Program-made: the position numbers and the translations under genes
Part shown: piece by piece, positions 3,247 through 61,853 of the stretch
Position numbering within the stretch: the stretch's first letter is position 1
How the letters are laid out: the number at the start of each line of letters is the position of its first letter
Notes under the pieces: model-generated
Databases searched by the model: none
What the model was told of the DNA's origin: nothing
Seen by the model: the letters and a program-made list of their open reading frames with translations, nothing else
Assembly: GCA_021736975.1 (NCBI GenBank)
Contig: JAIPET010000001.1
Coordinates: forward strand, 26,147 to 90,146
DNA length: 64,000 bases
Source: Candidatus Woesearchaeota archaeon
GTDB lineage: Archaea; Nanobdellota; Nanobdellia; Woesearchaeales; 21-14-0-10-32-9
Direction of reading: 5' to 3'

Positions 3247-3277
3247 AAGGTGTCTCAGCCCACTTAGCCTGACTATT

Positions 3278-3366: not shown

Positions 3367-3561
3367 GCCATTTCACTTTCTGGAAAGCCACCACCACTTC
3401 ACACATTAGGTGTCGTGGTTGTATTTTATAACAGCTAGGCTGTCATAGTGAAACGACGTGTAGTTCCAAGCTACTTCATTGCTTTTAATAAAGCAGCTGA
3501 GACAAAGTAGTAAGAATATATCTTATATAAAAACGTTTTTGTTTTCAGATTCTTTGGATGA

Positions 3562-7385: not shown

Positions 7386-7390
7386 TTTAT

Positions 7391-45666: not shown

Positions 45667-48069
45667 ATGAAATACGAATTAATAGGATTAGGAAACCCGA
45701 TGATGGATATAATGTTAGAAGTCTCTGATGAAAAATTACAAGAATTAAATTTACAAAAAGGACAATGCAACTTAGTAGATGAAGAAACAATAAAAAAATT
45801 AGAATCGCAAATAGATGAATCAAATGGAAAATTGATTTTAGGCGGATCAGTATCAAATATGATTGCAATATTCTCGCAATTAGGCGGAAAATCAAAATTT
45901 ATAGGAAAAATAGGTTCTGACAAAATAGGTCAAAAATATGAAGAAGGAATGAAAAAAATAGGAGTAGATCCAAATCTAATAATTTCTGAAAAAATGACAG
46001 GACGAAATTTAAATTTTGTGACTCCAGACTCAGAAAGAACAATGACAGTTCATCTAGGTTCTGCATTAACATTAAGATCAGAAGACATATCAGAAGAGAT
46101 AATACAAGAAACAAAATATTTCCAAGTAGCAGGATACGTATTAGAAGACGAAAATCTAAGAACTGCAACAATAAAAGCATTCAAAATAGCAAAACAAAAA
46201 GGAGCAAAAATATCAATAGACTTAGCAGATCCATGGCTGGTAGAAAGATGTAAAAACTCTTTATTAGATATAGTTAAAGAACACGCAGACATATTATTTG
46301 CAAACGAAGAAGAAGCAAAAAAAATAACAGGAAAAGAAACAGCAAAAGAATCAATAGAAGAACTATCAAAATATGTAGATTTAGTAATTGTAAAAATAGG
46401 AAAAGAAGGAAGCATAATAAAAAAACAAAACGAAAAAATAATCACAATAAAAGGATTTAAAGTAGAAGCAAAAGACACAACAGGAGCAGGGGATAGCTAC
46501 GCAGGAGCATTCTTATATGGATTAACACAAAATTGGCCACTAGAAAAAACAGGAAAACTAGCATCCTTTATAGCATCAGAAGTTGTAAAAATCATAGGTG
46601 CAAGATTAACAAAAATACCTGAATACGAACACATATTCAAAAATACATTTTCAACGGAGGAAACAAAAATGGATTATAAAGTAGCAGATATATCGCAAGC
46701 AAAATACGGAAGACAAGAAATAACAATAGCAGAAAAAGAAATGCCAGGACTAATAGCACTAAGAGAAAAATACGGCGAAGAAAAACCACTAAAAGGCGCA
46801 AAAATAATGGGCTCACTACACATGACAATACAAACCGCAGTACTCATAGAAACATTATCTGAATTAGGAGCAGACGTAAGATGGTGCTCATGCAATATTT
46901 ATAGTACACAAGACCATGCAGCAGCAGCAATAGCACAAACAGGAATACCTGTATTTGCATGGAAAGGAGAAACACTAAAAGAATACTGGTGGTGCACAGA
47001 ACAAGCACTAACTTGGCCAGATGGAACAGGACCAGACCTAATAGTTGATGATGGAAGCGACGCAACAATGCTCGTTCACAAAGGAGCTGCAGCTGAAAAA
47101 AATCCTGCTTTGCTAAACATTGATTACAGTAGTGAGGGTGAAGATTACCAAGAACTAATAAAATTAATAAAAGAATCATATCAAAAAGACAAAACTAAAT
47201 GGACAAAAATCGCTGAATACATAAAAGGAGTAAGCGAAGAAACAACAACAGGCGTAAATAGACTATACCAAATGATGAAAAACAAAGAATTACTATTTCC
47301 TGCAATAAACGTGAATGACTCAGTAACAAAAAGCAAATTTGACAACCTATACGGCTGCAGAGAATCATTAGCAGACGGAATCAAAAGAGGAACAGACGTA
47401 ATGATAGCAGGAAAAAAAGTTTTAGTATGCGGATATGGAGATGTAGGGAAAGGATGCGCACACAGCATGAAAAGCTATGGTGCTAGAGTTACAGTAACCG
47501 AAATAGATCCAATATGCGCATTACAAGCAGCAATGGAAGGATACGAAGTAAAAACCATTGAAGATGTCGTATCGGATGTAGATATATTTGTAACAACAAC
47601 AGGAAATAAAGACATAATAACAATACAGCACATGGAAAAAATGAAAGACAACGCAATAGTTTGCAACATCGGACATTTTGACAACGAAATCCAAGTAGAA
47701 AAACTAGAAAAATATCCAGGAATAAAAGAAGAAAACATAAAACCACAAGTAGACAAATTCGAATTCCCAGACGGACATTCAATAGTTTTACTAAGTAGAG
47801 GAAGACTAGTAAATCTAGGAAATGCAACAGGACACCCAAGCTTTGTAATGAGTAACAGTTTTACAAACCAAGTACTAGCACAAATAGAACTATGGAAAAA
47901 CAAACACGAAATAGGAGTAAGCGTACTTCCAAAAGAACTAGACGAAGAAGTAGCAAGACTGCACTTAGCAAAAATAGGAGTGAAACTAACTAAACTAAGC
48001 AAAGAACAAGCAGACTACATAAACGTTAAACAAGAAGGACCATATAAACCAAATCACTATAGGTATTAA
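45667..48069 (+). CDS. fused adenosine kinase (PfkB family) and S-adenosyl-L-homocysteine hydrolase
   Basis: N-terminal half has the PfkB signature [13 protein letters not shown]; C-terminal half has SAHH hallmarks ([20 protein letters not shown]-binding [10 protein letters not shown]); single uninterrupted 800-aa ORF. Confidence 0.8.
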
Positions 48070-48258
48070 TTTTTTTTTTATTTTTTACTTTTTGGGCATG
48101 CATAAATTATGTATTTATATCCGCGGAAAAAATATGGATGCGACCGTAATCAGCTAATGCTGATTGAATATAGTTGTTTTATGTGTTTTTTCTGCAAGAA
48201 AAAAAGCCGAAGGCTCAGTTCAAAAAATATTTTTCGCACTTCTTCAAAAACGAGCTTT

Positions 48259-48717
48259 TTACTTTTCAAAATAAGTTTTATATGACCTTAAAGTTGCATT
48301 TCCTATGCTTCTTGAACCAAAATTCCTATATAGAAATCCTAAAAATCCTGGAAATTGTACATTACTTATAATTAGATGAAAATTGACAACCTTGCCTTTA
48401 CTAGAAAACTCACAAAAATAATGTGACTTTCCATTCATCTTTTTTCCGGCTTGGTATTCTTCATCGAATTCAATTACAAATTTATCTGTTTGGACACTTT
48501 TAACAATATTTGTACGTTTCATAAGTCCTTCATTGTTTTTAATTATTACAAAATCCTTCCCTTCCTTATCCAAAACAACATTTGAAATTCCAGGCATTAG
48601 GCTAACTACACCAACAAAATGTTTCCCAATTTCTGCAAGTGATTTTTTAACTTTTTGTATATCGCAATCAATTTGATTAGAACCATCGAACCAAACAGAT
48701 TTTTTTAATTTAGTCAT
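48259..48717 (-). CDS. hypothetical protein
   Basis: 152-aa ORF bracketed by an 18-bp perfect inverted repeat. Confidence 0.4.
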   Translation of the reverse strand: MTKLKKSVWFDGSNQIDCDIQKVKKSLAEIGKHFVGVVSLMPGISNVVLDKEGKDFVIIKNNEGLMKRTNIVKSVQTDKFVIEFDEEYQAGKKMNGKSHYFCEFSSKGKVVNFHLIISNVQFPGFLGFLYRNFGSRSIGNATLRSYKTYFEK

Positions 48718-48897
48718 ATAAAACTTATTTCTTTATTATTATATAAATGTATTCGTCATCCAAGATAAATATTTTTTTAATTGAATGCGCTATGTGTTAA
48801 ATGATTGTGTGGTAGAATGAAAGAAGCAATATTTTGTTTAAATGTTGATAAGTTGTGTGAGGCAAAGTCGAAACCCGTAGATTTTTATTATTGCGCG

Positions 48898-49179
48898 TTA
48901 TTTGTAAATATTTTTTCTATGGCCTATTTCAATAACAATAATTAAAAGTTTGCCTGCTTTAATGTCAATAATTACTCTATAGTCTCCAACTCGTAATCTA
49001 AAATAAGGAGAAGCAACTAATTTTTTAACGTGAGAATGTGGTCTAATTCTACATCTTTCTAATGTAGAAATAATTCTTCTAGAATCTTGTTTATTTAGTT
49101 TATTTAGGAATTTTTTAGATTCGTTTGTAAAAAAAAGATCAAACACTAAAAAATCACCTCGTGATTTTGTGTGCACCAA
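48898..49179 (-). CDS. RelE/ParE-family type II toxin
   Basis: ...YFRLRVGDYRVIIDI...IIVIEIGHRKNIYK. Confidence 0.7.
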   Translation of the reverse strand: MVHTKSRGDFLVFDLFFTNESKKFLNKLNKQDSRRIISTLERCRIRPHSHVKKLVASPYFRLRVGDYRVIIDIKAGKLLIIVIEIGHRKNIYK

Positions 49180-49203
49180 AAATTTTTAATTTTTAAGTGC
49201 ATT

Positions 49204-49422
49204 TTACATTCCTAATTCCTTTTTAACATCTTCAAGAGAATAAACTCTTCCTGCTTTAATATCTTCTTCAGCTAGTTTGATTCTTTTTTTAGTTTCTTCA
49301 GATAATTCCATGGAATCCTCTAAAGCATCCCAAATTACTTCTTCATAAGATTCTTTATCATACATCTTTCTCTCTTTTAGTTTTGAGAGCAATTCTTGAC
49401 TTACTGATATTGTTGTTGCCAT
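49204..49422 (-). CDS. antitoxin candidate (RelB-like) upstream of RelE
   Basis: 72-aa acidic protein immediately upstream of and co-oriented with the toxin. Confidence 0.45.
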   Translation of the reverse strand: MATTISVSQELLSKLKERKMYDKESYEEVIWDALEDSMELSEETKKRIKLAEEDIKAGRVYSLEDVKKELGM

Positions 49423-49999
49423 AACAACTATATAATTGACTATATATATAAATATTTTGTTTTTTTAAGGCTTAAAAGAAAATTAGAACCTAAATACAAT
49501 TGCAACTAATCCTTGTAGGGCTGAAATTTAGTACCTCGTTCCGAAGGAAAATTTTTGAGTAAGCGGGCGGGCGACATTCTAAGCAAATTGGGATAGGATT
49601 ACTAAAGAAATTATTGCAAGAACAGATTTAATACCTGTATCGGGACATGAATATACTCATAGAGTGCAACATAACAATGGAGTTGTGTCTAAAAAATATT
49701 CAATATTTATGGAAGGTCATGCAAGGGGAGTGCAAAGACAATTATCTGAAGATTATCAAGAGTGAGAAGACAACGAAGCATTTCTCTATAACATTTTGGA
49801 CATCACAGTTGGAGAATTTAAAAGTACATATTTATGGATGTGTAAAAAGTTAGGCCAAGAACCAAGTAAAAGTTTGTTAAAAACAAAAAGCATACGAAGC
49901 AGGAAGAAAATAAATTTTACTTTTTTTTAGCTTTCCTTTATTCTTATTTTATCTTTCGGTTTAGTCAAAGCCCTATTCTATTTTTAGCCCAAATCTCAA

Positions 50000-50042
50000 A
50001 TTGCAATTAATCCTTGTTATACGTTTTTTCTGCAAGAAAAAA
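50000..50042 (+). repeat. dif-like site followed by the hairpin TTTTTTCTGCAAGAAAAAA; start of a 130-bp repeat module
   Basis: ATTGCAATTAA-TCCTTG-TTATACG then a perfect 8-bp stem with GCA loop; the module 50000-50130 is about 95% identical to 56125-56245. Confidence 0.6.
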
Positions 50043-50155
50043 AGCTGAAGGCTCAGTTAAATTTTCACGTTAATAAATATCGACCAAAGGGAGCCTATAT
50101 GTCCGAAGGACGAGTTGGGGCGTTTTAAATAGTTAAATATATAATGAGTTAATGT

Positions 50156-51159
50156 TTGTTTGTTCTTATGGTTGCAAACGATGATGAAATTAGAACAATA
50201 TTCAAATCATTAGATTTAAACATAAATAATATTTCTAAAGTCAAAACACTTGCTAATTTCTTGGTTAAAGTTGAAACTGATAAAGGGAATTATTTTCTAA
50301 AGATTTATGATAGTAAAATAGAAGCTAAGACAGGTTACAAATTAGCTCATTTGTATCCGCTTTTATTAGAAAATAATATTCCTGTTCCAAAAGTTGTCAA
50401 ATATGATGACAGTTTAGAATTAGTTAAGCATCCTTACTTGATAATTACTGAAATTGAAGGTCAAATGCTTTGCGATGTAATTGAGACAATGAGCAGAAAA
50501 GAAAAAGTTTCTTTTTATTATGAATTTGGAAAAATAATTGCGAATTTCCATTCAATTACTTTTGATAAATTCGGAGAAACTTTTGATGGTAAAACTGTTC
50601 AGAATTTTACTGAAGCAAATAATAAAGGTCCGTTTGATAATTGGAAAGATATGCATAAAGAAATAATCGAATTTAGGTTAAATATTTTCAGAAACTCAAG
50701 TTTTGAAGATCTAATTGAACCTATTAGTTCTTGGTTTGAAAAAAATTCAGATCTTATTGATTATCATATTACTCCGAGACTACTTCATATTGATTTAAAT
50801 CAAAAAAATGTATTCGTGAATAATAATAAAATTTCAGGAATAATTGATTTTGATGGAGCTTTTGTTGGACATAATGAAGAAGAATTAATGAGAACTGAAG
50901 GTGCAAATTTTTCAAATGATGAAGAATTAAAGCAATCATTTTTCGAATGATATACAGAAATTATTAAATTAGATTCTGATTATGAACTACGAAGAAAATA
51001 CTATTATTTTGCAAGATTACTTGTTCATACTGATTGCATAATTCAATATGGTGAAAGTTATGTTGATGTTAAAAAAGAAGGAGATATTGTTAGAAAAGAA
51101 ATTTTTAAATTATTAAATGATGAAGAAATTGATTTTAATAAGAATAAGCGAAATACTTA
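50156..51159 (+). pseudogene. aminoglycoside/choline-kinase-type phosphotransferase (APH family) with in-frame TGA at 50948-50950
   Basis: HIDLNQKNVFV (HxDLxxxN) and IIDFDGAF (DFG/IDxD) motifs; the same frame stays open for 69 more codons after the TGA, giving a typical family length of about 334 aa. Confidence 0.55.
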
Positions 51160-51214
51160 ATCTAGCTCCAACTCTTTTTGTTTCTTTTTTCTAAAAAGAA
51201 AATAGTGAAAATTT

Positions 51215-51238
51215 AATTGCGTATAAGCCTTGTTATAC
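51215..51238 (+). repeat. dif-like palindromic site ATTGCGTATAA-GCCTTG-TTATACG
   Basis: 7-bp perfect inverted arms CGTATAA/TTATACG around a 6-bp spacer; a member of an at least 10-copy family, all in + orientation, lying between the single-gene units. Confidence 0.6.
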
Positions 51239-51302
51239 GTTTTTTCTGCAAGAAAAAATCGCGAAGTGAAACGTAGCGACAGTATGACGCAAGGTGGTGG
51301 CG

Positions 51303-51860
51303 TTACAGAAGTGGCTTAATATTATTAAATAATTCTTCAAATTCAATATATCCTGCTTCCTCGTTAAAGTGTCCTGCATTTTTTATAATATTAGGTATTG
51401 CACCAAGTTTATCTGCTAACTCATTTGCACATTCTATTGGAACGTAAGGGTCATTATCTGAATGATAAATAAAGAATTGTTTACAATTTTGTTTTATCTT
51501 TGACCAATCAAAGGTTTTATCTACAAATGTTCTATTGATTGAATCAAAAGTTTCATTTCCTAATAATTTTAAGAAACCTGAAATGAAATATGAACCTTTG
51601 ATTGTTACATTAATATGTTCCAATACACTTAGTAAAAATGCAGGTGCTAAACTATGACCTACAAAAATGGTATTCTCATCAATTTGGTTTTCATATTCTG
51701 CAAAAATAGTATTCCAGTTTTCCAATGATTGATTTTCAGGAGTTGGAAATTCAGGAACAATCACTTCGTGATTTAATTCTTCTAATTTTTGCTTTAACCA
51801 AGGAAACCAGTTTTCTTTTGGATTACCAAAAGCACCATGAATGAGGAAAATTTTTGTCAT
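51303..51860 (-). CDS. alpha/beta hydrolase (YdeN/RBBP9-like serine hydrolase)
   Basis: 185 aa, GHSLA nucleophile elbow, D and H later in the sequence. Confidence 0.55.
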   Translation of the reverse strand: MTKIFLIHGAFGNPKENWFPWLKQKLEELNHEVIVPEFPTPENQSLENWNTIFAEYENQIDENTIFVGHSLAPAFLLSVLEHINVTIKGSYFISGFLKLLGNETFDSINRTFVDKTFDWSKIKQNCKQFFIYHSDNDPYVPIECANELADKLGAIPNIIKNAGHFNEEAGYIEFEELFNNIKPLL

Positions 51861-51920
51861 AATAATATAATAGAAAGCAGGATTTTATAAGATTTGTGAT
51901 TAAGCCACCACCTGAGTAAT

Positions 51921-51944
51921 ATTGCGTATAATCCTTGTTAAACT
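51921..51944 (+). repeat. dif-like site (right arm degenerate)
   Basis: ATTGCGTATAA-TCCTTG-TTAAACT. Confidence 0.5.
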
Positions 51945-52064
51945 CTCCGTTAGGATTGATTTTTAGTGCAACGATGCCGAAGGCAAAAAATCAAAGTCGA
52001 GAAAGAGGGCGTTCTATTTAATGAGCGAATGCAATACATCAAGAACAGGAATATAGGGGCACAC

Positions 52065-52982
52065 TCACGTTTCTTTTAGTTCATATACATTATCCAATAA
52101 ATCTGGCTTTGGAATTGAAGATAATTCTCCTTTACTTCCACTTTTAACCCATTTAATATGCCATAAATATAGAAGTCCGACAGACATTTGTTCTAAATAT
52201 ATTCCTAATGTCCAAATTATTCCTTCATAAATTATTACTACTGTCCAAAATAAAGATGAGAATGCAACACCAGATTTATCCAAATAAATAATTATTATCA
52301 ATGGAATAGCCATAAATAATGATGCAATACCTGTTAAAGTATATGTTGTAATAAATTGTAATGGATGTTTTTTTATGACTTCAAGAGATCTTTTAAACGC
52401 TGAAAATGGTCCTTTATTTTCCCAAGCAATAGCTGGTAATGTTAAAAAGATGTACATTCTAACTAATTTTTCAAACATTCTTAATCCGAGTTTTAACCAA
52501 CTAAAGGGTCCAGAGTTTGCTCCTCCTAATGTTAATGCAGCATCTCTAGGAGATGGTTCTGGTCTTGAACTTCTTCCTTTCTTTTTACTAGTTAAAACTC
52601 TAATAATTAGTAGAATAAACCAAACAATTGCCCAAATTAGCGCGACTGGAATTACTTTTATCAAATCTAAAAATACTGCTTCTTTTATTGCTTTTCCAAA
52701 TGATATTTTTTCTCCGAATTCAATCTGTTGCATGAATTCAAGCATCATAATATTTGCAACACAAATAATTAATGTAATCAGGAAAATTACTCCAAATATA
52801 ATTAATAGTAGTAATCCTAAATCATTTGGTGCTTCAAAATAATACCTTAGATATAATATAATTGATGCAACTAAAATCCATGAGAAAAATATTGGGATTA
52901 GAAAAATTGGTTTTCTAAAAAGAAATTTGAATGAATCAGTAAAAAGTTTCCATCCTTCGCCTAGTTTACCTAAAAATGCCAT
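52065..52982 (-). CDS. polytopic membrane protein
   Basis: 305 aa with several hydrophobic helices; flanked by two nested perfect 14-bp inverted repeats. Confidence 0.45.
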   Translation of the reverse strand: MAFLGKLGEGWKLFTDSFKFLFRKPIFLIPIFFSWILVASIILYLRYYFEAPNDLGLLLLIIFGVIFLITLIICVANIMMLEFMQQIEFGEKISFGKAIKEAVFLDLIKVIPVALIWAIVWFILLIIRVLTSKKKGRSSRPEPSPRDAALTLGGANSGPFSWLKLGLRMFEKLVRMYIFLTLPAIAWENKGPFSAFKRSLEVIKKHPLQFITTYTLTGIASLFMAIPLIIIIYLDKSGVAFSSLFWTVVIIYEGIIWTLGIYLEQMSVGLLYLWHIKWVKSGSKGELSSIPKPDLLDNVYELKET

Positions 52983-53084
52983 TTAAATATTAAATGTCAA
53001 GAGTAATATATAAATATTTCTAGAGTGAGTGTGCCCCTTTCAAATCTTTAGCCCTCTTTCTCGATTGAGTTTAAGTGCTGTTAT

Positions 53085-53125
53085 CTTTCCTGACGACCAA
53101 AGGGAGGAAAGCGCAGCGGGGCTCG
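53085..53125 (+). repeat. repeat module B: CGACGACYRAARGGAGGARAGCGCAGCGGGGC
   Basis: Copies at 53085-53125, 53958-53995 and 58897-58930, partial at 60072-60100; contains the SD-like AAAGGAGG. Confidence 0.5.
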
Positions 53126-53299
53126 AAGGTGTAGCGAAGCGGAACCATCGAGAGTTGAGAATAAGTCCGTCCATCAGATGAACGAAGTGGTACATCTAGA
53201 CAAATCATCGAGGGGTTTGGTTGTTAGAAAACTTGTTGCCACTAAATAGAGACTATAAAGCGAAAGGTTTTTAAATACATAATCATTTTCCTTTTTAAA

Positions 53300-53902
53300 A
53301 TGACAATAATAATTCCAAAATATTCAGAATCAAAAATTGTTGAACCAACAAAACAAGATTATCAACAACTAAGTATTGATATGCCTGATAAGAAAAATAT
53401 AAGATTAGCATCATTAGATGAAATAAAAACTTTTTCTGGAGTTGATTTATCATATGGAGTTCCAATTATTAAAAAAGGATTTTTTGGAAATAAAAATTCA
53501 GATTTATATGCACCAACTGATGAAGATTGTTCTAGATTAGGAATAGAAAATAATTATGCCGTATCTCAAGAAGGTGATGTAATGCTAAAAAGTTATTCTT
53601 TAGAAGATGGTGTTGCATATGTTTCTGATCCACATGGAAGTTTAGTTGAAACTTTTGCAAAAAGTTCAGCAATAGCATCGGATGTAATCAAAAATGGAAT
53701 TGTAAATATGAAAGTATTTATCAAAGATGCAGGTATTGGAAATTTAGTATTAACCCATCCTGATGTGGGTACTTCTTTAAAAAATCATGGATCAAAATTT
53801 GTTGATACCTTATTTCCAAATTATAGAAAAATAATGGCAACAATACCAGATTCAAGTTCGCAAGGTATAACATCTAACGGACTAGAATATGCATTATATT
53901 AA
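53300..53902 (+). CDS. hypothetical protein
   Basis: 200-aa ORF; TATA-like TTTTTAAATA about 25 bp upstream; flanked by a 14-bp perfect inverted repeat. Confidence 0.45.
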   Translation: MTIIIPKYSESKIVEPTKQDYQQLSIDMPDKKNIRLASLDEIKTFSGVDLSYGVPIIKKGFFGNKNSDLYAPTDEDCSRLGIENNYAVSQEGDVMLKSYSLEDGVAYVSDPHGSLVETFAKSSAIASDVIKNGIVNMKVFIKDAGIGNLVLTHPDVGTSLKNHGSKFVDTLFPNYRKIMATIPDSSSQGITSNGLEYALY

Positions 53903-54102
53903 ACCAAACCCCCTTCTTTTTTTTAGGACTTATTCTCAATTGAAGATAATTCCTGTTATGTCTCCCGACGACTAAAAGGAGGAGAGCGCAGCGGGGCAAA
54001 ATCCAAAGGATTTTGAGTTCAGAATTCGGGCGTTATTAATATTAACTTTAAAGTGGTAACAGTACCGAAAGATTTATAAATATAAAGTCAATTCATTTTA
54101 TT

Positions 54103-54387
54103 ATGAGATTATATCAAAAAATTATCGCTGGAGGAATAGTAATTGCTGGTTTGGCTGGACTTACTGGATGTAAAGATAATTCTAATCAAGAATCTCAAAG
54201 AAATGAACCTGCTCCATCACATTTTGCGACAGTTCCAATGGTTTATGAAACTGGAATGTCAATGACGAGTGGAGATTTTGATGGAGATGGAGATTTAGAT
54301 TTGATTGTTGGAGCAAAATATCCTGGAAAAAGCGAAGGACGAGTTTATAGATTCAACAATGATGGAGAAGGTAATCTTTCTCAGTAA
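54103..54387 (+). CDS. lipoprotein with FG-GAP/VCBS-like repeat
   Basis: Signal peptide and lipobox LTGC; DFDGDGDLDLIVGAKY; TATA-like TTTATAAATA about 25 bp upstream. Confidence 0.5.
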   Translation: MRLYQKIIAGGIVIAGLAGLTGCKDNSNQESQRNEPAPSHFATVPMVYETGMSMTSGDFDGDGDLDLIVGAKYPGKSEGRVYRFNNDGEGNLSQ

Positions 54388-54433
54388 ATCTTTCGGTTTC
54401 TATAATTATACTTTTAGCCCGAATTCTGAATTA

Positions 54434-54472
54434 GACATAATCCTTGTTATACGTTTTTTCTGCAAGAAAAAA
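54434..54472 (+). repeat. dif-like half site plus hairpin TTTTTTCTGCAAGAAAAAA
   Basis: ...ATAA-TCCTTG-TTATACG followed by the hairpin; a variant module is shared with 51239-51300. Confidence 0.5.
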
Positions 54473-54518
54473 TTGCGAAATGAAATGGAGCAACAGTATG
54501 ACGCAGAGAGCTTTTCCG

Positions 54519-55016
54519 TTACTTGTTGAAAAAATTAATACATTCTGGAATTACTTTTAGAAAATTCTCTGGAGAATTATTTAAACTTTGAAGTAATTCC
54601 TCTTTTGAAAACCATTTGATTTTTTCAACTTCATCTTCTTGAATTGTAAATTGTTTTATATCTTTATCGACTAAAGCAAAAAACCATTGAGTAAAATGTT
54701 TGTGTTCTCCATCGTGAAAATGATGAAATGACTTTTGAAATTTTTGATTCTTTAAACCAATCTCTTCTTCAGCTTCTTTAACAATATTGGATTCATATGA
54801 TTCTCCTTCATCAATAGTTCCAGCAACTGCTGGACCCCATTTCCCAGGATTATTTTTTTTGTTAAATGATCTTTGTGCAAGGAGAATCTCGCCATTAGAA
54901 TTTTGAATCCATAAAGCTGAAACTCTATAAATATCAGATTGGTTTAAAGTTCCTCTTTCTTTAGAACCTATGATTTCATCATTTTCATTTACAATAACTA
55001 TTTTTGCTTTAGACAT
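54519..55016 (-). CDS. NUDIX hydrolase
   Basis: Nudix box GTIDEGESYESNIVKEAEEEIGL. Confidence 0.75.
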   Translation of the reverse strand: MSKAKIVIVNENDEIIGSKERGTLNQSDIYRVSALWIQNSNGEILLAQRSFNKKNNPGKWGPAVAGTIDEGESYESNIVKEAEEEIGLKNQKFQKSFHHFHDGEHKHFTQWFFALVDKDIKQFTIQEDEVEKIKWFSKEELLQSLNNSPENFLKVIPECINFFNK

Positions 55017-55075
55017 ATCTTTTTACAATTCAAGAAGTAATATAAATTTATCGAAAGGAAAAGCTCTCGAGTAAT

Positions 55076-55099
55076 ATTGCGTATAACCCTTGTTATATT
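55076..55099 (+). repeat. dif-like site
   Basis: ATTGCGTATAA-CCCTTG-TTATATT. Confidence 0.5.
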
Positions 55100-55167
55100 C
55101 CCCGTAGGGCAGAAATTTAGTGCAACGTCCCGAAGGGAAATTTCAGAGTTTTGGAAATGGGCCGTCA

Positions 55168-56064
55168 TTAAAAATTTGATATTAAAAAATCTGTAACAAC
55201 TTTTGCTAATTCTTCTTCCTTATCTTCAAAATCGTGATTAGTTTTTGGAATAATTACTGCTTTGGTTCTGCTGTTACTTTTCTTCAATAATTCAACTGAT
55301 TCGTTGACTGACATCATCATATGTTCAGAACCTTCTTTAACAACATCTGCATTTGTGAATTTGTCATTATTTGAAATTACTGCCAAAATAGGAACTTTAA
55401 TTTTAGAATAAAAATCCAATTTCTTTAGACGAAATGGAAATGCTTTAGATAATTCTGAATTGTCTGAAAACTGATTTATGAACGATTCGGCACTTTTTGG
55501 CAGTATCCCTGCGTGACTATACCATTGTGTTGTTAAAAATTGTTCTCTTTTATCTTTTTCAATTAGGTTTTTTGCTTCAGTAAATAAGTCATCTTTACAG
55601 TTAGTTTTATCCATGAATTTATGGGCACAACCAAAAGAATCAGAAAAACCTAAAAGTACAATTCCAGTAATTTTATCTTTATACTTTCCTTTATTCATGT
55701 AATAAACAATTTTTTCAGTTCCTAAACTATGGCCTTGTAGGATTATGTTTGAATATCCCTTATTTATGACAAATTCAATCCATGCATCAATATCCAAAAG
55801 ACAATCCTCAAAATTCTCGACCGCTGAGCCTGTTTTTTGCCAAGTGTGTGTCAAAACAGAATTTCCTCTGTTGTTAATTGATAACCACGAGAATCCATTT
55901 TTGGGAAAAGCAACAGCCATATTCTCAAAGAATGGCTCTTCATAAAAATTGCTTGCAGAACCATGAATATTAATCACGATTTTGTCTGAATTTTTATTTT
56001 CCAAAAATAATCCGTGAAGAATTAACTTGTCTTTTGTTGTTACAGATACTATTGGGTATTTCAT
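55168..56064 (-). CDS. alpha/beta hydrolase (esterase/lipase-like)
   Basis: GHSLG nucleophile motif, 298 aa. Confidence 0.6.
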   Translation of the reverse strand: MKYPIVSVTTKDKLILHGLFLENKNSDKIVINIHGSASNFYEEPFFENMAVAFPKNGFSWLSINNRGNSVLTHTWQKTGSAVENFEDCLLDIDAWIEFVINKGYSNIILQGHSLGTEKIVYYMNKGKYKDKITGIVLLGFSDSFGCAHKFMDKTNCKDDLFTEAKNLIEKDKREQFLTTQWYSHAGILPKSAESFINQFSDNSELSKAFPFRLKKLDFYSKIKVPILAVISNNDKFTNADVVKEGSEHMMMSVNESVELLKKSNSRTKAVIIPKTNHDFEDKEEELAKVVTDFLISNF

Positions 56065-56124
56065 ATCTATATAGATTTGAAGAAGAATTAAAAAGATTTC
56101 GTTTTAGGCCCCTTTCCAAAATTG

Positions 56125-56245
56125 AATATAAGCTCTGTTATACGTTTTTTCTGCAAGAAAAAAAGCCGAAGGCTCAATTAAATTTTCACGTCAATCAATA
56201 ACGACCAAAGGGAGCCAATATGTCCGAAGGACGAGGGGGGTCCAG
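56125..56245 (+). repeat. dif-like half site, hairpin and 100-bp repeat module (second copy)
   Basis: Near-identical to 50000-50130; ends in the left inverted repeat of the next unit. Confidence 0.6.
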
Positions 56246-56286
56246 ATTTTTTGTTTCTTTTTTTTTAAAAAAGAATATTGAATCTT

Positions 56287-57714
56287 TTAGTTTCTCATAA
56301 TTTTTTCAAAAATTAATCCTACAAATATTCCAACTATTCCTGCTAACAAATTCATTATTGCCGGTTCAAATCCAAATAAAGGAATCTTAAGAAATAAGTT
56401 TAATATTACTGATATTAATCCGAAAGATAGGGCAAACCAACCAACAGTTTTTGATTTAATTCCATGTAATGGGGCTAATAAGCAAGGAAGCAAACCCATT
56501 AAACCCGCAATTTGAATAGTTGCTAAACTTACGATGAATTTAGGAGGTGAAATAGAAAGTATTACACTTATCACTAGAACAGATATCATCAATATTCTGC
56601 TTAGAGATACTTTAATTTTTTCTCTTTTCAAAACATTTTCTTCAAATATTGCTGTTACTGAAAGTAGAACTGAATCTATTGTTGATATGGATGCTGCAAC
56701 AACTCCGACAATCACAAGTATGGATGCAATGATTATCAATCCTAGTAAAAATCCTGTTGAGTTTGACAAAACACTTTGAATAACATCTCCGACTACAAAA
56801 TCAGGGGTTGAAACAGCAACATTTGCTGCAGCGTATAAACCAATTAATCCCGCAAACAAAATTGTAAAAACTCCTGCAATTGGATACCACAAGCTAATCA
56901 TCTTTAGCGTCTTTTTATTTGCTGCCATTATTCTTACACTAACTTGAGGTGTTGCTAGAACAATGAATGCAAAAAGTATTGCATAGGAGATTAAAAGAGG
57001 TACTGTGAAATAGCCATTCGGACCTGGAATTGAAGTTAGTCCTGCTTCACTAATCTTTGCTAAAAAATTAGTGCCTTTCATAAAAAATAACAATACTGCT
57101 CCAAAAACACCTACTCCAACTAAAGTGAATATTCCTTGAATTTGATCAGTCTTTGCGTCAACAATAGAACCGCCCTTCCATAAATAAAATCCAACTAAAG
57201 CCGCAAGAATTATTAAACCAGTGATATAGCTAATTGCTCCATCTGTATATGAAACAAATAATTTGCCTATTCCAGCTAGTTGCAATATTAAATACGGAAA
57301 CAAAAATAATATTGTTGTCAAAGATAATATTTTTGAAAGACTTTTTGAATTATATCCATCTAATAACAATCCAATAGGAGAAAGAAAAGTTTTATTGTTT
57401 TTTTCTTGGTCCTGTCTTAGTTTTGATATTTTAACACCATAAGTCATTAAAATAATAGGAGTTAACATCACACCTAAACCGAGAAAGAAAAATGCACCGA
57501 CTCCATGTGCATAATATAATGCGGGTAAACCAACAACAGTGAATGCACTAAATGTTGTAGCAAAAAGAGAAAAGAAAATAAGGTTCGGACTAAGTCTTCC
57601 AATAGCAGTAAAAAATTCATAATTAGTGATTTTTTTAGGGAGTTTAATTTTAACCCATAAAGAAATTCCAATAACCAAGAGAATGGATATAATTGCAATT
57701 GTTAGTTCAATCAT
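56287..57714 (-). CDS. polytopic membrane transporter (sodium:solute symporter-like)
   Basis: 475 aa, about 12 hydrophobic helices. Confidence 0.4.
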   Translation of the reverse strand: MIELTIAIISILLVIGISLWVKIKLPKKITNYEFFTAIGRLSPNLIFFSLFATTFSAFTVVGLPALYYAHGVGAFFFLGLGVMLTPIILMTYGVKISKLRQDQEKNNKTFLSPIGLLLDGYNSKSLSKILSLTTILFLFPYLILQLAGIGKLFVSYTDGAISYITGLIILAALVGFYLWKGGSIVDAKTDQIQGIFTLVGVGVFGAVLLFFMKGTNFLAKISEAGLTSIPGPNGYFTVPLLISYAILFAFIVLATPQVSVRIMAANKKTLKMISLWYPIAGVFTILFAGLIGLYAAANVAVSTPDFVVGDVIQSVLSNSTGFLLGLIIIASILVIVGVVAASISTIDSVLLSVTAIFEENVLKREKIKVSLSRILMISVLVISVILSISPPKFIVSLATIQIAGLMGLLPCLLAPLHGIKSKTVGWFALSFGLISVILNLFLKIPLFGFEPAIMNLLAGIVGIFVGLIFEKIMRN

Positions 57715-58219
57715 AATTTAGATTTATTAATTAAAGTTTATAATGTTTTCTAAAATCAACGTGGACTTGGAATGTTTTTCTCAGTAAATCAATTTCGAAC
57801 AACAAAGTTGTGAGCCAATATGTGCGTAGCACCTGGACTCCCCCTCTTTTGCTTCTTTTTCTAAAAGAAGAATGAGATTTAGACTAGTGAAAATTTAATT
57901 GCGTATAACATCGCGATTAAGAGAAGTTGTTTGCAGTGACTTTAATCTATAAATAAGCAAACAATTTGGGCTAATTTCTGGTCGGGCACGAAGCCGATTT
58001 GCGAAGCAAAAAGAAATTACCTCTTAATCTGCTGTTGGGAGATTTTTTCTGAAAGAAAAAACACGAGCTGACGCACAAAGCGTCCTCGTGAGTAAAAAAT
58101 TATCTTTGGGTGGGGGGCGGAGGTGGAAACTCCGCAATTAAATAGGAAAAATTATCGTGTTATTTTGAGAAATTAGGGTTGGGCGAAAGACTTATAAACT
58201 ATAGGGTGATAACAAGAAT

Positions 58220-58570
58220 ATGATAAAAGAAATTTGGAAAGAATGTGTAGCACTTGGCTTAGCAGGAGCAATTTATTTTTCTCCAGCTGCGGTTGAAATT
58301 TACATGAACAGCAAATTTAAGGACATTGGAGAAGAATTTTCTGTAAGAGAAATTGGTAATCAAAGACAATTTTATATTGGTGCCGAGATGGGATTGGCTC
58401 GTCTTGCAATAGATGAAAACAAAGACGGCACCCTTGACAAAGTATATAGAAATATGCCAATTTCTCCAATGATGGGTGGTCCAGGATACAGATTGATGGA
58501 AACAGAAACAACCGCAACCGACAGAGAAAAATTTGCAAGGGCAGAACGACTTCTAAGCCAAGCAAAATAA
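58220..58570 (+). CDS. hypothetical protein
   Basis: 116-aa ORF; TATA-like CTTATAAACT about 25-30 bp upstream. Confidence 0.4.
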   Translation: MIKEIWKECVALGLAGAIYFSPAAVEIYMNSKFKDIGEEFSVREIGNQRQFYIGAEMGLARLAIDENKDGTLDKVYRNMPISPMMGGPGYRLMETETTATDREKFARAERLLSQAK

Positions 58571-58877
58571 ATTCTTTCTTTCAAAAATAAAGCCCTACCC
58601 TAAGAAAAATTTGGGAGAGCAAAGCGAACCCTTTACCCTTTGTTATATGAGGTGCGAAGCATTTCATTTCTGTTTTTGTTTGGTCGGGTAAAAGAAGTTT
58701 TTCATAGTATTTTCACGATGATTTTTCAGTATCTCGGGTGGGAAGAAAGATAATTTTTTATTTCCCCGAGCCGAAGAATGAGGCGAGTGGTGTAAATCCC
58801 AACGTCAGGGATATACGAAGTTTTTCTGGAACGAAGCGGAAGAAAAATTTGGGTGAAGCCCGAGCCGAGGGCTGAAC

Positions 58878-58897
58878 CGTATATCCCTTGTTATACG
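58878..58897 (+). repeat. dif-like site
   Basis: CCGTATAT-CCCTTG-TTATACG. Confidence 0.5.
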
Positions 58898-58969
58898 CCC
58901 CGACGACTGAAAGGAGGAGAGCGCAGCGTGGTGCGAACGAAGTGAGCAAGTCAGTGGAGTGGCGTTAAT

Positions 58970-59935
58970 CTAATAAGAAGTCGTTCTCGTTAAATGATAT
59001 GGTTTATCATTTTTTAATTTTTCTTGTCCAAGAATCCAAATATGATCGTTAACATGAATAGAATCTGCGTGTGCAATCTTCTTTTTTATCTTTTGTTTGA
59101 TTAGTTCTACAACCCAAACAGTATTTGCTCTTAATTCTATTTCTTCCTCGCTGTCTTTATCAATTTGAATTTGATTATCAATTTTATCAGCGAGGTAATC
59201 TGAATAAGAGAAAATACCTAATCTTCTTAAAACAAAAGGTAATTTATAATCGGCACACGCAGTTAGTTTATCAATATTTTTTAACTTGCCAAATTCGTGT
59301 CCGTTGAAAGCTTGCACAATATCAGCAACTAAAAGTTGTGCACGCTTGTAAAAATAAACTCTCTTTCCGTTGTAAGTTGATGAGTCCTCAAAAGAAGGAA
59401 AATTCTCAACTATCAAACTCAATAATTTTTGTGAATCGCCATTTGCTTTTTCTAGGAGATTAGTAAAATCGCCGTCAAATTTCTTGAGTAATGTTGTTCC
59501 AATTTCTCTTAAAATATTCAACCTTTCTTCAAAAAGAGGAATTTGAACATTTCCCTCCAAGATTTTACTAAGCTCTTCTTCTTTAATCTCAGAAAGAAAT
59601 TTTGCGTCCAAAATGGGAATTTTATTTTCTATTGCTCTGGCAACAGCACTTATCATTCCATACGCACCATCAACTTCTTCGGAATGATAAATTATTTTCC
59701 ATTTTGGGTCGCCCCAATATGAAAAACTGATTGAGTTAAACACGAGTAAAAAATGCAGTCTATCTTTCGGGCTTAACTTTTTGAGATTAAATGGCGATTC
59801 ATCAATCCAATGTTTGATATGAGAATGACTAAAATAATCAACAAACTCATCAACTTTTTCAGAGTTTATTTTTACGTGTTGAGAATTATCAACAACGAAT
59901 TTGCAAGTTTCAATTATTCTATTCATGTTATCCAT
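58970..59935 (-). CDS. hypothetical protein (possibly DUF2419 / queuosine-salvage-like)
   Basis: 321-aa ORF; the family assignment is tentative, from overall pattern only. Confidence 0.35.
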   Translation of the reverse strand: MDNMNRIIETCKFVVDNSQHVKINSEKVDEFVDYFSHSHIKHWIDESPFNLKKLSPKDRLHFLLVFNSISFSYWGDPKWKIIYHSEEVDGAYGMISAVARAIENKIPILDAKFLSEIKEEELSKILEGNVQIPLFEERLNILREIGTTLLKKFDGDFTNLLEKANGDSQKLLSLIVENFPSFEDSSTYNGKRVYFYKRAQLLVADIVQAFNGHEFGKLKNIDKLTACADYKLPFVLRRLGIFSYSDYLADKIDNQIQIDKDSEEEIELRANTVWVVELIKQKIKKKIAHADSIHVNDHIWILGQEKLKNDKPYHLTRTTSY

Positions 59936-60015
59936 TATAAATTAAAAAATGATACTAATTAAAAAATGTTTCTATAACGACTTCCACTTTGTAGCCACTC
60001 CACTGATTGCGTATA

Positions 60016-60039
60016 ATCGCTGTTCATTTTCCCGAGCGT
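60016..60039 (+). repeat. dif-like site (right arm degenerate)
   Basis: ATTGCGTATAA-TCGCTG-TTCATTT, overlapping the end of the right inverted repeat of the 58970 unit. Confidence 0.45.
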
Positions 60040-60215
60040 AATGAAATGAAGCGAGAGCCTGCAAGGCGTGGCACGAGCGGAACGACTGAAAGGAGTGACC
60101 TCGTGAGTTTCCAATCTCCGAAAATTCTTTGATATCATAGTTGCTGAAATGTATATTGACTATGTAGTAGTAAATAAATAGAAAGATTTAAAAGTAAACA
60201 GATTCTTCTTTTTCT

Positions 60216-60719
60216 ATGACAATGGAAAGTTCCCAAACATACGCGAAGCCATTTGATTTAGAAGAAAGGCTGGAAACTCAAGATAGCAGAAGCGCCTTTC
60301 AAAAAATCAAAGATGTATATTTCAAACCTAAATCTTTTGAAAAATGGAAGAACGGGAGAGTTTACGAATGGATTGGTGCAAAATATATTCAAAAAGCAGT
60401 GATGGGAACAGTAGGTAAACTCGGGCGTTCAATAGGAAGGGATGAAGAAAGTGGAACAAATTATTTTATTGGAAAACAATTAAATCTTGATGCCTTAGAA
60501 ACTTATGAAAGAAAAACAAGATTTAATGAAATGTTACATGCCCCCCAAATAATTTGGAACGCGTCTGTATTGGTAAAATATTTAGGTGATGGTAATTATG
60601 GCGGAGAGGTTTTCTGGGGAAGTTTTTTTCTTGCATTAAATAGTTCTTGCACAATTATTCAAAGATACAATCGTGCAAGAGTAGATAATGTCATAGAAAA
60701 AAGATACAAGAAAAAATAA
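60216..60719 (+). CDS. hypothetical protein
   Basis: 167-aa ORF. Confidence 0.4.
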   Translation: MTMESSQTYAKPFDLEERLETQDSRSAFQKIKDVYFKPKSFEKWKNGRVYEWIGAKYIQKAVMGTVGKLGRSIGRDEESGTNYFIGKQLNLDALETYERKTRFNEMLHAPQIIWNASVLVKYLGDGNYGGEVFWGSFFLALNSSCTIIQRYNRARVDNVIEKRYKKK

Positions 60720-61037
60720 TCTTTCTATTTTACAAAATACTTTTCAGCAATTTCGTTTAATCAGCGATGTTATGCGACAATTTTAATTTCGCATTGGAGC
60801 GTTAAGCGAAGATATCAAAATCAGAATTTTTGGTTTACCGACGCTAGGAGGAGATTGGAAATTGAAATGAACAATATATATACGAAAAAAGGCAAATTTT
60901 GCTTTTTTAGGACTTCAGAGTCTTAAATTTATGATTTCGATTCAGAAAAAGTGTTTTGATTTATTAGTGTCAAATCCGAAAATTTTCCAAAATTTTGATG
61001 GTAGCACATATAAATTTCATAATATTCACGTTCATTA

Positions 61038-61853
61038 ATGACTTTTGATGTTCTTTACAATATGAAAAGAGAAATGCTCCGTCGCAAACTTTCTCCAAGA
61101 ACAGTAAAAACCTATTTGAATTATGTTAAAATGTTTTTGCTTGCTAATAAAGAAAAAGATGTTAGAAAATTTTCTAAAAAAGACGTAAGAGAATTTCTTT
61201 ATAAACTTGAAGAAAAAAAAGTTTCAGGAAGTACACTAAATGTAGCTCATAACGCTTTGCGTTTCATGATGATTGATGTTTTACACAAAGCTTGTTATTT
61301 AAAAATAAAATATGCAAAAACTCCTGTTAGACAAATAGAATATCTAACTAAAGAAGAGGTTATTAAAATTTTAAATGTTATTGAAAATGCAAAACATAAA
61401 TTATTAATTTCTTTGATGTATGGAGCAGGTCTTAGAGTGCGAGAAGTGACTCGTTTAAAGATTACAGATTTTAGTTTTGAAGAAAATATTGGATTTGTTA
61501 GAGGAGGAAAAGGAAACAAGGATAGATTATTTATTATTCCTCAAAAAATAAAGAAAGAACTACAAAAAGTTTGTTCTCAAGAAACACACTGGATTTTTCC
61601 AGGAAGAAACGGTTCGTTAACTGTCAAATCTGTACAATTAATTGTTAAACAGGCAGGAAAGAAAGCAAAAATAAAAAAACATGTTCATCCACACATATTT
61701 AGACATTCATTCACAACGCATTTATTAGAATCAGGAATTGATGTAAATTCAGTTCAAGGACTTCTTGGACATGTAAGACCAGAAACAACTCTAGGATATT
61801 CGCATACATTAAGACCGAAAAAGATTACAATAAAAAGTCCGCTAGATTACTAA
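61038..61853 (+). CDS. xer: Xer-like tyrosine recombinase (XerA/XerC/D family)
   Basis: GLRVREVTRL (box I Arg); HPHIFRHSFTTHLLESGIDVNSVQGLLGHVRPETTLGYSHT (box II H-x-x-R...H...Y); 271 aa. Confidence 0.8.
   Translation: MTFDVLYNMKREMLRRKLSPRTVKTYLNYVKMFLLANKEKDVRKFSKKDVREFLYKLEEKKVSGSTLNVAHNALRFMMIDVLHKACYLKIKYAKTPVRQIEYLTKEEVIKILNVIENAKHKLLISLMYGAGLRVREVTRLKITDFSFEENIGFVRGGKGNKDRLFIIPQKIKKELQKVCSQETHWIFPGRNGSLTVKSVQLIVKQAGKKAKIKKHVHPHIFRHSFTTHLLESGIDVNSVQGLLGHVRPETTLGYSHTLRPKKITIKSPLDY

Follow-up and report, generated by a model that had tools for sequence, protein, structure and literature searches.

Integrons are the textbook example of gene capture, recombination of folded DNA has been regarded as a speciality of their integrase IntI, and their origin from Xer-like enzymes is not settled. 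Their attC site is a contiguous imperfect palindrome of 57-141 bp at the 3' end of the cassette, with the R''/R' core RYYYAAC/GTTRRRY and the crossover at G|TT. In CTX phage the folded single strand of attP(+) imitates dif and only one strand pair is exchanged, and in Acinetobacter the sites known as pdif alternate in orientation around each module. Here we describe a locus of Candidatus Woesearchaeota (assembly GCA_021736975.1, contig JAIPET010000001.1) which shares features with all of these. The analysed stretch of 64,000 nt, called the window below, has a G+C content of ~32%; in it a row of dif-like sites beside the gene of a XerA-like tyrosine recombinase separates accessory genes, and the units between the sites are bracketed by inverted repeats, which we call arms. 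We propose, with moderate confidence, that the arms are the two strands of the interrupted stem of a cassette recombination site.

The row of sites occupies positions 48164-60884, with at least 14 sites within 12.7 kb, every one of them on the + strand. Each consists of a left half (L), a short centre (c) and a right half (R), the consensus being ATTGCGTATAA-NCCTTG-TTATACG. Sites in direct orientation flank every unit; the units measure 92 nt to 2.4 kb, carry no accessory gene or one, and none of them encodes a recombinase. Between the sites lie the genes of a ParE toxin and antitoxin, a phosphotransferase, two hydrolases, a NUDIX protein, a solute symporter, a queuosine-salvage protein, CrtO and several unknowns, and no transposase was found among the cassette genes of the array. 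The left border is formed by a PfkB-AdoHcyase fusion gene and the right border by the gene of the 271-aa recombinase (61038-61853, +), presumably the enzyme that moves the cassettes.

How does this locus compare with the systems described so far? Like an integron it is an array of mostly single-gene cassettes beside a tyrosine recombinase gene, with a distinct terminal site next to that gene and with a typical cassette content (ParE toxin-antitoxin, NUDIX, phosphotransferase, hydrolases and unknowns). It also has a module of ~100 nt which is conserved in structure over sequence and is predicted to fold as a single strand, with the crossover placed at an edge of the central region. In contrast to integrons, the recombinase lacks the additional domain that IntI has between patches II and III, the site is dif-like and not arranged as R''-L''...L'-R', and the crossover would lie at the small-loop end, with the stem split around the gene, whereas attC stays intact at the cassette 3' end; because the stem is split, the integrated boundaries have no local fold. 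Each cassette here has its own promoter and a random orientation, while integron cassettes are mostly promoterless, co-oriented and expressed from Pc, and a conserved frame is re-used here with different genes. The preliminary description of the locus had contrasted the repeats with attC sites because their sequences differ for every gene. This was misleading, since a cassette-specific sequence with a conserved structure is the hallmark of attC. Canonical attC sites were also considered and rejected: GTTATAC/GTATAAC stand just 4-6 nt apart inside the dif-like site, and integrated boundaries do not fold. Archaeal cassette arrays were reported by Ghaly et al. 2022 (PMC9668308) in metagenome-assembled genomes (MAGs), including those of Nanoarchaeota/DPANN; these were found with attC models and have canonical attC sites and IntIs with the IntI-specific domain, which, on the text of that paper, would set them apart from the arrays described here. 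The same text has no mention of XerA, Woesearchaeota or inverted repeats.

For an Xer enzyme acting on folded DNA, CTX phage is the nearest mechanistic precedent. Like the other integrative mobile elements exploiting Xer (IMEX), and like the units described here, it has no integrase of its own and accumulates in tandem at a dif-type site. IMEX, however, are phages, plasmids or islands with replication or transfer functions of their own and not one-gene cassettes. In CTX two inverted dif-like sites pair into a duplex site, whereas here L and R of the same cassette pair and the centre would be a loop or linker; moreover, the present host is an archaeon, which presumably has one XerA-type enzyme only. 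The pdif modules of Acinetobacter, whose sites are listed in PMC6449649, are comparable in being small gene modules which are bounded by Xer-type sites and shuffled between replicons. Unlike pdif, the array sites are all direct repeats on one strand, both in the window and in its relatives, and pdif modules lack cassette-specific arms and occur mainly in plasmids. With archaeal Xer/dif dimer resolution (XerA, PMC2958812) the locus shares inverted arms around a 6-nt centre and a recombinase that is highly conserved in the lineage, as a housekeeping gene would be; it differs in having at least 14 sites and not one, in half-sites that are free at 4-5 positions and yet co-vary across the cassette, and in a XerA score below the NCBIfam cut-off. 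The system thus resembles an integron and CTX integration but falls outside the definitions of integrons, Xer/dif proper, pdif modules and transposons. Full-text literature searches found no description of such arrays, and this split-hairpin, integron-like cassette system of Woesearchaeota has seemingly not been described before.

Arms and the frame they belong to

Twelve pairs of inverted repeats had been claimed for the array, and all twelve are present in the sequence. The nine that were called perfect are all perfect and six of them lie where they had been placed, but in three the right arm had been put exactly 10 nt off (53041-53054, 53015-53028 and 60004-60016 for the true 53051-53064, 53025-53038 and 59994-60006); the three imperfect pairs match their description. 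The claim that such matches go beyond chance holds as well. When left flanks were compared with right flanks within the window, the mean score was 12.1 in the same unit against 7.7 (standard deviation 1.45) for other units, and repeats scoring at least 12 within 120 nt of the ends of an open reading frame (ORF) occurred at 6 of the 11 array ORFs and at 0 of 45 ORFs elsewhere in the window, so that the enrichment at array genes suggested earlier is borne out there. These two comparisons, with mismatched units and between inside and outside, exclude a chance origin of the arms. Our comparison loci (designated L with a number) were those encoding relatives of the recombinase, together with metagenome contigs holding the site pattern. 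Among 66 non-redundant units from 36 loci, own-unit arms scored at least 12 in 50%, whereas mismatched unit pairs did so in 0.5%. When the 36 nt preceding a site were reverse-complemented and sought in the 3.5 kb upstream, a match scoring at least 12 turned up at 35 of 101 sites; downstream this was so at 2 of 89, and the arm pattern recurs in the complete 1.13-Mb Woesearchaeota genome CP060219.1.

Nesting of the repeats, previously described as occasional, is the rule: an inner pair with a score of 11 or more accompanies the outer arms in 71% of the units that have them (2.6% of controls), and the last two units of the window have 4-5 nested segments each. The right outer arm has its last base on the A of ATTG, the first base of that motif, in the majority of units (class I); in a minority (class II) it stops 7 nt short of that point, with GAGTAAT after it. 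An end 7 bp before the site, presented earlier as typical, is therefore confined to this minority. From the site to the left outer arm there are 32-108 nt (median about 52 nt), and this arm is preceded by RAG in class I or GACGCA in class II. Between the site and the left arm sits a module, called var here, which is rich in C-GAA-G and GNRA-type mini-hairpins and belongs to one of a few families common to different cassettes and metagenomes. The inner arms fit closely around the gene: one of them overlaps its stop codon, and the other is located at the B recognition element (BRE) and TATA box or immediately outside them. The contacts with stop codons and TATA boxes reported before are real for these inner pairs; the earlier list had mixed in outer pairs, which adjoin the sites. 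Elements resembling BRE/TATA are thus situated inside the inner arms and each cassette has its own promoter; in 34 units the longest ORF has the orientation of the sites (+ strand), in 31 the opposite one (- strand). Two further regularities were considered and dropped. A conserved motif at the inner edges of the arms (GTT/GTC after and TTTA before the arms in the window) is a mere tendency at other loci, and the 3' end of var is not an inverted copy of dif: in the folds no more of it is paired than the 3-6 nt adjoining the left arm, their partner being ATTG or, in class II, GAGTAATATTG.

The preliminary description also gave each gene a unique repeat of its own. Arms are indeed unique within one array, but they recur around unrelated genes in other genomes. 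The window unit 53939-54430 and a unit of L028 (6-858) have the centre, R, var module, outer arms and L in common and carry unrelated genes; the homology ends at the inner edge of the outer arms, and the inner arms are separate in each. In five pairs of units from different contigs with near-identical outer arms the cargo was unrelated in four, and one toxin-antitoxin cargo was found in two different frames. ORF-less units of 92-168 nt fold like gene cassettes, and in L045 (730-855) and L056 (36-203) the arms are retained as a plain hairpin whose loop measures 29 nt or 5 nt. Because the same frame holds unrelated genes, the outer arms belong to a recombination module that carries the gene in its hairpin loop; they move together with the site/var frame, independently of the gene, which is why the repeats are unique within one array only. 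The terminal repeats of a transposon or a miniature inverted-repeat transposable element were rejected as an explanation, as the arms differ in every unit of the array, the cassette genes include no transposase and the unit ends are set by site halves.

Half-sites, crossover position and predicted folds

The R half of a site, TTA with 4-5 variable bases, is complementary to the L half of the next site and not to that of its own. Pairs which depart from the consensus in the window match each other within the unit (TTAAACT/AGTTTAA, TTATCTT/AAGATAA, TTATGTCT/AGACATAA, TTATATT/AATATAA and TTCATTT/AAATGAA). Over 88 units an average of 3.7 of the 5 variable positions paired between R of one site and L of the next, compared with 2.3 of 5 between R and L of the same site and 2.2 at random; among 81 informative units, pairing was better across the unit in 63 and within the site in 8. 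When the sites were re-joined and aligned, 88.3% of the cells paired and covariation was 0.432 against 0.183 after shuffling, a value reached by none of 500 shuffles, with 108 double-sided changes against 45.8 ± 5.4. For the sites as integrated the paired cells amounted to 74.9%, against 74.7% in shuffles, 226 of 500 of which reached it, and the two arms of one integrated site showed no complementarity beyond TAA/TTA. Since R pairs with the L of the next site and not with its own L, each integrated site is a hybrid of two cassettes.

The limits of a cassette are seen in its copies. The same cassette is found in L081 (8950-9807) and L123 (749-1606) with 91% identity, and homology begins immediately past the upstream TAA and stops immediately past the downstream ...GCGTATAA. 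Likewise, L070 shares with the phosphotransferase cassette of the window only the sequence from c to L. In 11 pairs of sites with the same upstream side (arm and L) and different downstream sides the centre was never shared (1.55 of 4 positions, background 1.45); site pairs with near-identical downstream sides have identical centres. The homology and the linkage of the centre together define the cassette as c-R-var-arm-gene-arm-L and place the crossover at TAA|c. As neighbouring centres differ and the linkage is one-sided, we infer that only one strand may be exchanged, which would fit the way integrons and CTX phage recombine.

Joined cassette ends of 90-150 nt, folded with DNA parameters, form a closing stem of the arms and ATT, an L:R hairpin with the centre as a loop of 4-6 nt, and one or two var hairpins. 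Six re-joined cassettes of the window gave -22 to -30 kcal/mol with z from -4.0 to -8.8, and none of 200 shuffles was as good; five integrated boundaries of the same length gave z from -0.66 to +0.11, that is, no local fold. In 33 of 40 units the arm stem and the L:R hairpin were present together in the minimum free energy structure, and chimeric ends reached -12.5 kcal/mol as against -24.2 kcal/mol for own ends. The right-hand strand passes from one helix into the other with no nucleotide between them: ATT belongs to the arm helix, GNNNNTAA to that of the half-sites, and the var module forms a side branch. The suggestion that single-strand folding brings consecutive sites together is thus supported by the half-site complementarity, by the folds of the re-joined ends (z -4 to -9) and by a strand bias in mispairs. 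On the site strand the ratio of G·T to A·C was 38:9 for the half-site helix, 30:14 for the arms and 68:23 for both together, and this strand folded better than its complement in 36 of 40 units. The bias is alike for genes on the + strand (36:15) and the - strand (17:6), and the folding strand is therefore set by the sites and not by transcription of the gene. This disfavours a role of the stems in mRNA; RNA of the site strand would be compatible with it.

Covariation of the two arms in homologues, proposed earlier as a check, was found between clearly homologous frames, to which we restricted the compensatory evidence, and uncompensated changes were seen too. Orthologous cassettes suited to this comparison are few among 135 loci, and the pair L036/L066 was set aside since the contexts are not comparable. 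Between L022 and L036, which have a common frame, an A:T pair of the outer arms has become G:C, and in the inner arms TT has become TCC on the left and AA has become GGA on the right. L081 (6423) and L096 (2148) are distinguished by a C:G to T:A change in their inner arms, and L052 (3156) and L081 (6423) have the same var and arms with the half-sites TTATATT/GGATATAA in one and TTAGTTT/GAAACTAA in the other. Among the uncompensated changes is one G·T in L123. An automated comparison of similar arms gave 30 compensated, 7 wobble and 52 uncompensated changes; this count is noisy, many of the arms being non-homologous or over-extended.

A proposed folded cassette site and its alternatives

According to the model that we favour, a cassette spans the centre of one site to the L half of the next and does not run from site to site. 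Its order is c, R, var with one or two mini-hairpins, outer arm, inner arm, promoter and gene in either orientation, inner arm, outer arm and L; R and L of one cassette are complementary, and the arms extend this pairing free of gaps on the right-hand strand. When the site strand of the array is single-stranded DNA (ssDNA), the stem would close across the gene and draw both flanking crossover points together. The stems of such a single-stranded array would make L of one site and R of the previous one double-stranded, with the 6-nt centres linking consecutive stems. In the excised circle the stem would turn into a cloverleaf of ~100 nt, made up of the closing arm stem, the L:R hairpin with the centre as its 4-6 nt loop, and the var hairpins, and the crossover point TAA|c would lie at the edge of the central-region loop. 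The gene would occupy the far loop of the hairpin, and integration would open the hairpin at the small loop; a hairpin opened there leaves the strands of its stem on opposite sides of the gene, which matches the observed arms. Since arms need only pair, and should differ between neighbours to avoid mis-pairing, they would be unique within one array. Replication would complete the single-strand exchange, as in integrons and CTX phage. The model thus implies that ssDNA may fold in vivo, that the XerA-like enzyme may exchange one strand at TAA|c and that the cassette may be excised as a circle; the covariation, the folds and the G·T bias give computational support to recombination of a folded single strand which is recognised by its structure.

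Could Woesearchaeota, as members of the DPANN, own a third, independently built platform of gene capture next to integrons and Xer-exploiting elements? On this wider proposal an enzyme of the XerA type would move one-gene cassettes of ssDNA, the cloverleaf site would be cut at its small loop, the chromosomal crossover site would be formed from two half-sites, each made duplex with the far end of the neighbouring cassette, and a reusable frame of site halves, var and outer arms would be loaded with unrelated promoter-plus-gene modules in a second step. We put this forward tentatively, as an attractive possibility that falls short of being probable.

Several points count against the folded cassette site. 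No excised circle or empty site was observed, the probably circular contig L077 being a different element of 4.3 kb. We know of no tyrosine recombinase that acts at the edge of a hairpin loop, nor of one that uses two half-sites completed by distant partners, and archaeal XerA works on double-stranded dif. At the thresholds used, ~40% of the units show no clear outer arm. Sites were detected with a consensus taken from this window and metagenomes were scanned for a single exact pattern, which biases the sample towards arrays like this one. Strand-asymmetric mutation could account for part of the G·T excess over A·C, and pairing that tolerates G·U, together with loops of the GNRA and GAA type, suits RNA as well as DNA. 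Finally, some arm changes are uncompensated, two in L028 compared with the window and one in L052 compared with L081.

These uncompensated changes are among the features that would be expected if the arms and the palindromic half-sites were passive relics, the array having been formed by ordinary double-stranded Xer recombination, with small circles integrated in tandem at dif in the manner of IMEX and genes inserted into the loops of hairpin-rich elements. The dif layout of the sites and the kinship of the recombinase, whose best solved relative is XerA of P. abyssi, agree with such a history, as do the existence of ORF-less elements with an arm hairpin and the presence of unrelated genes in the same frame. 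However, relics should decay symmetrically, yet G·T and A·C stand at 68:23, and several homologous frames show double-sided changes that preserve pairing, one of them an indel. Nor does duplex DNA need any complementarity between L and R, yet covariation is 0.432 against 0.183. The centres differ between neighbouring sites, which is awkward for the classical exchange of two strands, and circles of 92-168 bp would probably be too small for duplex synapsis. We regard this history as rather unlikely, although it is the most serious of the alternatives.

It may also be that the stems act in RNA, read-through transcripts of the site strand being closed unit by unit by a processing stem, with cleavage, circular RNAs or stabilisation as the outcome. 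Long flanking stems serve in the processing of archaeal rRNA precursors, wobbles of the G·U type are tolerated in the pairing, and the var modules offer GNRA-like and GAA loops. The folding strand is fixed by the sites, however, and with gene orientations of 34:31 such an RNA would be antisense to half of the genes; on one side the arms stand beyond the promoter, the stems are perfect runs with no bulge-helix-bulge pattern, and the pairing partners are defined by the recombination crossover. An Rfam scan of 47.9-61.1 kb with an E-value threshold gave one sub-threshold chance match and no family. The long-range RNA stems tied to expression which had been suggested earlier are disfavoured by the independence of the strand bias from the gene strand and by the position of the arms outside promoters, and we consider an RNA function improbable. 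Least likely of all is that the arms are substrates for flipping the gene between them, as a switch or by template-switching during replication: inverted repeats are known to promote inversion and the 34:31 orientation is unlike that of integrons, but every arm differs, so that no invertase-type site is common to the units, the half-site complementarity, the nucleotide-exact abutment and the strand bias are left unexplained, no cassette was found in both orientations among the loci compared, and inversion, although it could account for the orientation, is unneeded to explain the arms.

Units of the array, recombinase and relatives

The array begins ~95 nt past the stop codon of the left border gene, an 800-aa ORF (45667-48069, +) in which a PfkB-family kinase domain is fused to S-adenosylhomocysteine hydrolase. 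All sites and arms given here are on the + strand. The array-distal boundary site, ATTGAATATAG TTGTT TTATGTG (48164..48186), has a chromosomal left half, and its right half opens the first cassette, with a var module of family A next to it; this cassette has imperfect outer arms (48218..48235 / 48764..48781) and perfect inner arms of 18 nt (48269..48286 / 48713..48730). Its right outer arm abuts a degenerate dif-like site which is uncertain, ATTGAATGCGC TATGTG TTAAATG (48778..48801). The following unit (48778-49522) holds the ParE toxin/antitoxin pair (48898-49179 and 49204-49422, - strand) and is the sole unit without detectable arms. Both of its flanking sites are degenerate, the second (49499..49522) having retained the left half and centre (ATTGCAACTAA TCCTTG) and lost the right half by deletion. 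The cassette appears to be immobilised and may recall the toxin-antitoxin cassettes that stabilise chromosomal integrons.

After the site ATTGCAATTAA TCCTTG TTATACG (50000..50023) comes the phosphotransferase gene of the APH family (50156-51160, +), which contains an in-frame TGA at 50948-50950; its 3' end, together with the right arm, has a 91.6% identical copy in L070. Its outer arms lie at 50057..50068 (TTAAATTTTCAC) and 51205..51216, and its inner arms at 50112..50121 (GAGTTGGGGC, one mismatch) and 51165..51174 (GCTCCAACTC). The site ATTGCGTATAA GCCTTG TTATACG (51216..51239) is followed by class II outer arms at 51292..51301, with GACGCA before, and 51904..51913, with GAGTAAT after. The next site, ATTGCGTATAA TCCTTG TTAAACT (51921..51944), has an R half complementary to the L half of the site at 53064; the outer arms of this unit are at 51997..52010 / 53051..53064 and the inner arms at 52055..52068, overlapping the stop codon, and 53025..53038, just upstream of the TATA box. 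The unit opened by ATTGAGTTTAA GTGCTG TTATCTT (53064..53087) has outer arms at 53155..53168 / 53926..53939 and inner arms, absent from the earlier list, at 53212..53222 / 53902..53912. That opened by ATTGAAGATAA TTCCTG TTATGTC (53939..53962) has outer arms at 54018..54031 / 54417..54430 and inner arms which overlap BRE/TATA on the left (54064..54076) and the stop codon on the right (54385..54397). The NUDIX unit after ATTAGACATAA TCCTTG TTATACG (54430..54453) is of class II (outer arms 54506..54517 / 55057..55068). The unit after ATTGCGTATAA CCCTTG TTATATT (55076..55099) has outer arms with one mismatch (55149..55163 / 56107..56121) and inner arms at 55189..55200 / 56036..56047.

The cassette of the SSF-family solute symporter follows the site ATTGAATATAA GCTCTG TTATACG (56121..56144), with outer arms at 56175..56189 / 57887..57901 and inner arms with one indel at 56233..56245 / 57833..57846, and is closed by a left half-site ATTGCGTATAA (57898..57908). 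Directly after this stands an ORF-less mini-cassette of 121 nt (57909..58029), whose ends GATTAAGAG (57915) and CTCTTAATC (58021) are complementary and lack the usual TTA/TAA. The stretch 58030-58874 contains degenerate sites which resist parsing; within it, arms with one mismatch (58173..58184 / 58592..58603) surround the ORF 58220-58570. The site (G)AACCGTATATC CCTTG TTATACG (58874..58897), with a degenerate left half, opens the Q_salvage unit, which has outer arms at 58951..58963 / 59994..60006 and nested segments over 58977..59064 on the left (58977-58985, 59005-59020, 59050-59064) and 59916..59984 on the right (59916-59930, 59939-59954, 59976-59984). The last unit, after ATTGCGTATAA TCGCTG TTCATTT (60006..60029), has outer arms at 60108..60119 / 60850..60861, the right one abutting the terminal site, with nested segments over 60128..60221 (60128-60136, 60141-60158, 60176-60188, 60209-60221) and 60689..60819 (60689-60701, 60718-60730, 60733-60750, 60811-60819). 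The attI-like terminal site beside the recombinase gene is ATTGAAATGAA CAATAT ATATACG (60861..60884), the L half of which is complementary to the R half of the site at 60006. Provisional sites at 60752 and 58626 were discarded, the true terminal site being that at 60861.

The terminal site has a distinct centre and R half (of the type NNNTAT ATAWGCG), lies 150-250 nt upstream of the recombinase gene and has counterparts in relatives (L011, L009, L012 and L144/L145/L147). An array followed by a recombinase gene on the same strand is also seen with relatives of 40-49% identity, in L096, L123 and L112 and in long contigs as well. The recombinase of the window is 70-84% identical to proteins of many Candidatus Woesearchaeota MAGs. 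In NCBIfam it scores 193 bits with XerA_Arch (NF040815, cut-off 220) and 187 bits, in two pieces, with the integron integrase model TIGR02249 (cut-off 265). Its best solved relatives are XerA of P. abyssi (4a8e) and then VchIntIA (2a3v), to which its N-terminal two thirds align almost as well as to XerA; the insertion specific to IntI is absent, 22 residues of the query (177-198) standing opposite 68 residues of IntI4 (179-246) in the VchIntIA alignment. In 9 of 15 genome loci the contig ends within ~2.5 kb upstream of the recombinase gene. Most MAG contigs with the gene break off 0.2-2.5 kb upstream of it, where the array is expected (L001, L002, L004-L008, L010, L013 and L014). This suggests that assembly failed there because of repeats or heterogeneity of the population, and the breaks fit an array that varies within the population.

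Two divergent paralogues of tyrosine recombinases lie just left of the gene bordering the array (42212-43048, -, and 44351-45349, +); they are 51% identical to each other and have weak Pfam/NCBIfam matches. This integrase pair at 42.2-45.3 kb was rejected as a part of the system, as it has no counterpart near the arrays in any related locus. Elsewhere in the window, 3273-4467 and 6466-7388 form a duplication spaced by 2.9 kb and 71-89% identical, which is unrelated to the array and contains 86-nt repeats with a GACAAACCGGCC...GGACACGGCCC frame. A tRNA search found no tRNA.

Sites of a similar kind were seen singly in other contigs. L077 (Ga0180007_10027002) is a contig of 4458 nt, the first 100 nt of which recur at 4336, and is probably circular. 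It has one fully palindromic site, ATTGCGTATAA TAACTG TTATACGCA (1011-1036), genes of the helix-turn-helix type and no recombinase, and is a candidate for a small plasmid or virus that uses the Xer enzyme of its host. In L053, L062, L068, L071, L088, L108, L111, L113 and L118 (42-51% G+C) there are single sites ATTGCGTATAA-N6-TTATACGCA(AT), self-complementary over at least 8 scored positions, which are probably the ordinary dif of other lineages; the commonest half-site of the cassettes is identical to half of these palindromes (ATTGCGTATAA). Four sites ATATCATATAA CCAATG TTATCTC in L115 (2156-2601, in reverse strand coordinates), spaced by 128-161 nt and each followed by a conserved GTAGAGATTAAA, may represent a related type of array in another lineage. 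The viral contigs searched gave eight single matches and no arrays.

What could such arrays mean? The recombinase stands between XerA and IntI in sequence and is without the IntI insertion, and its sites are still dif and already attC-like, which would make a transition from Xer to integron open to test. How genes come to be joined to a recombination site is unsolved for integrons, and here the same frame is seen both empty, with a loop of 5 nt or 29 nt, and loaded. Cassettes could be mined from metagenomes by two rules, the crossover at TAA|centre and the pairing of R of one site with L of the next. The arrays would also explain why assemblies break just upstream of xerA. Perhaps most of all, they would give the DPANN archaea, with their tiny genomes and dependence on hosts, a concrete route for the turnover of accessory genes.

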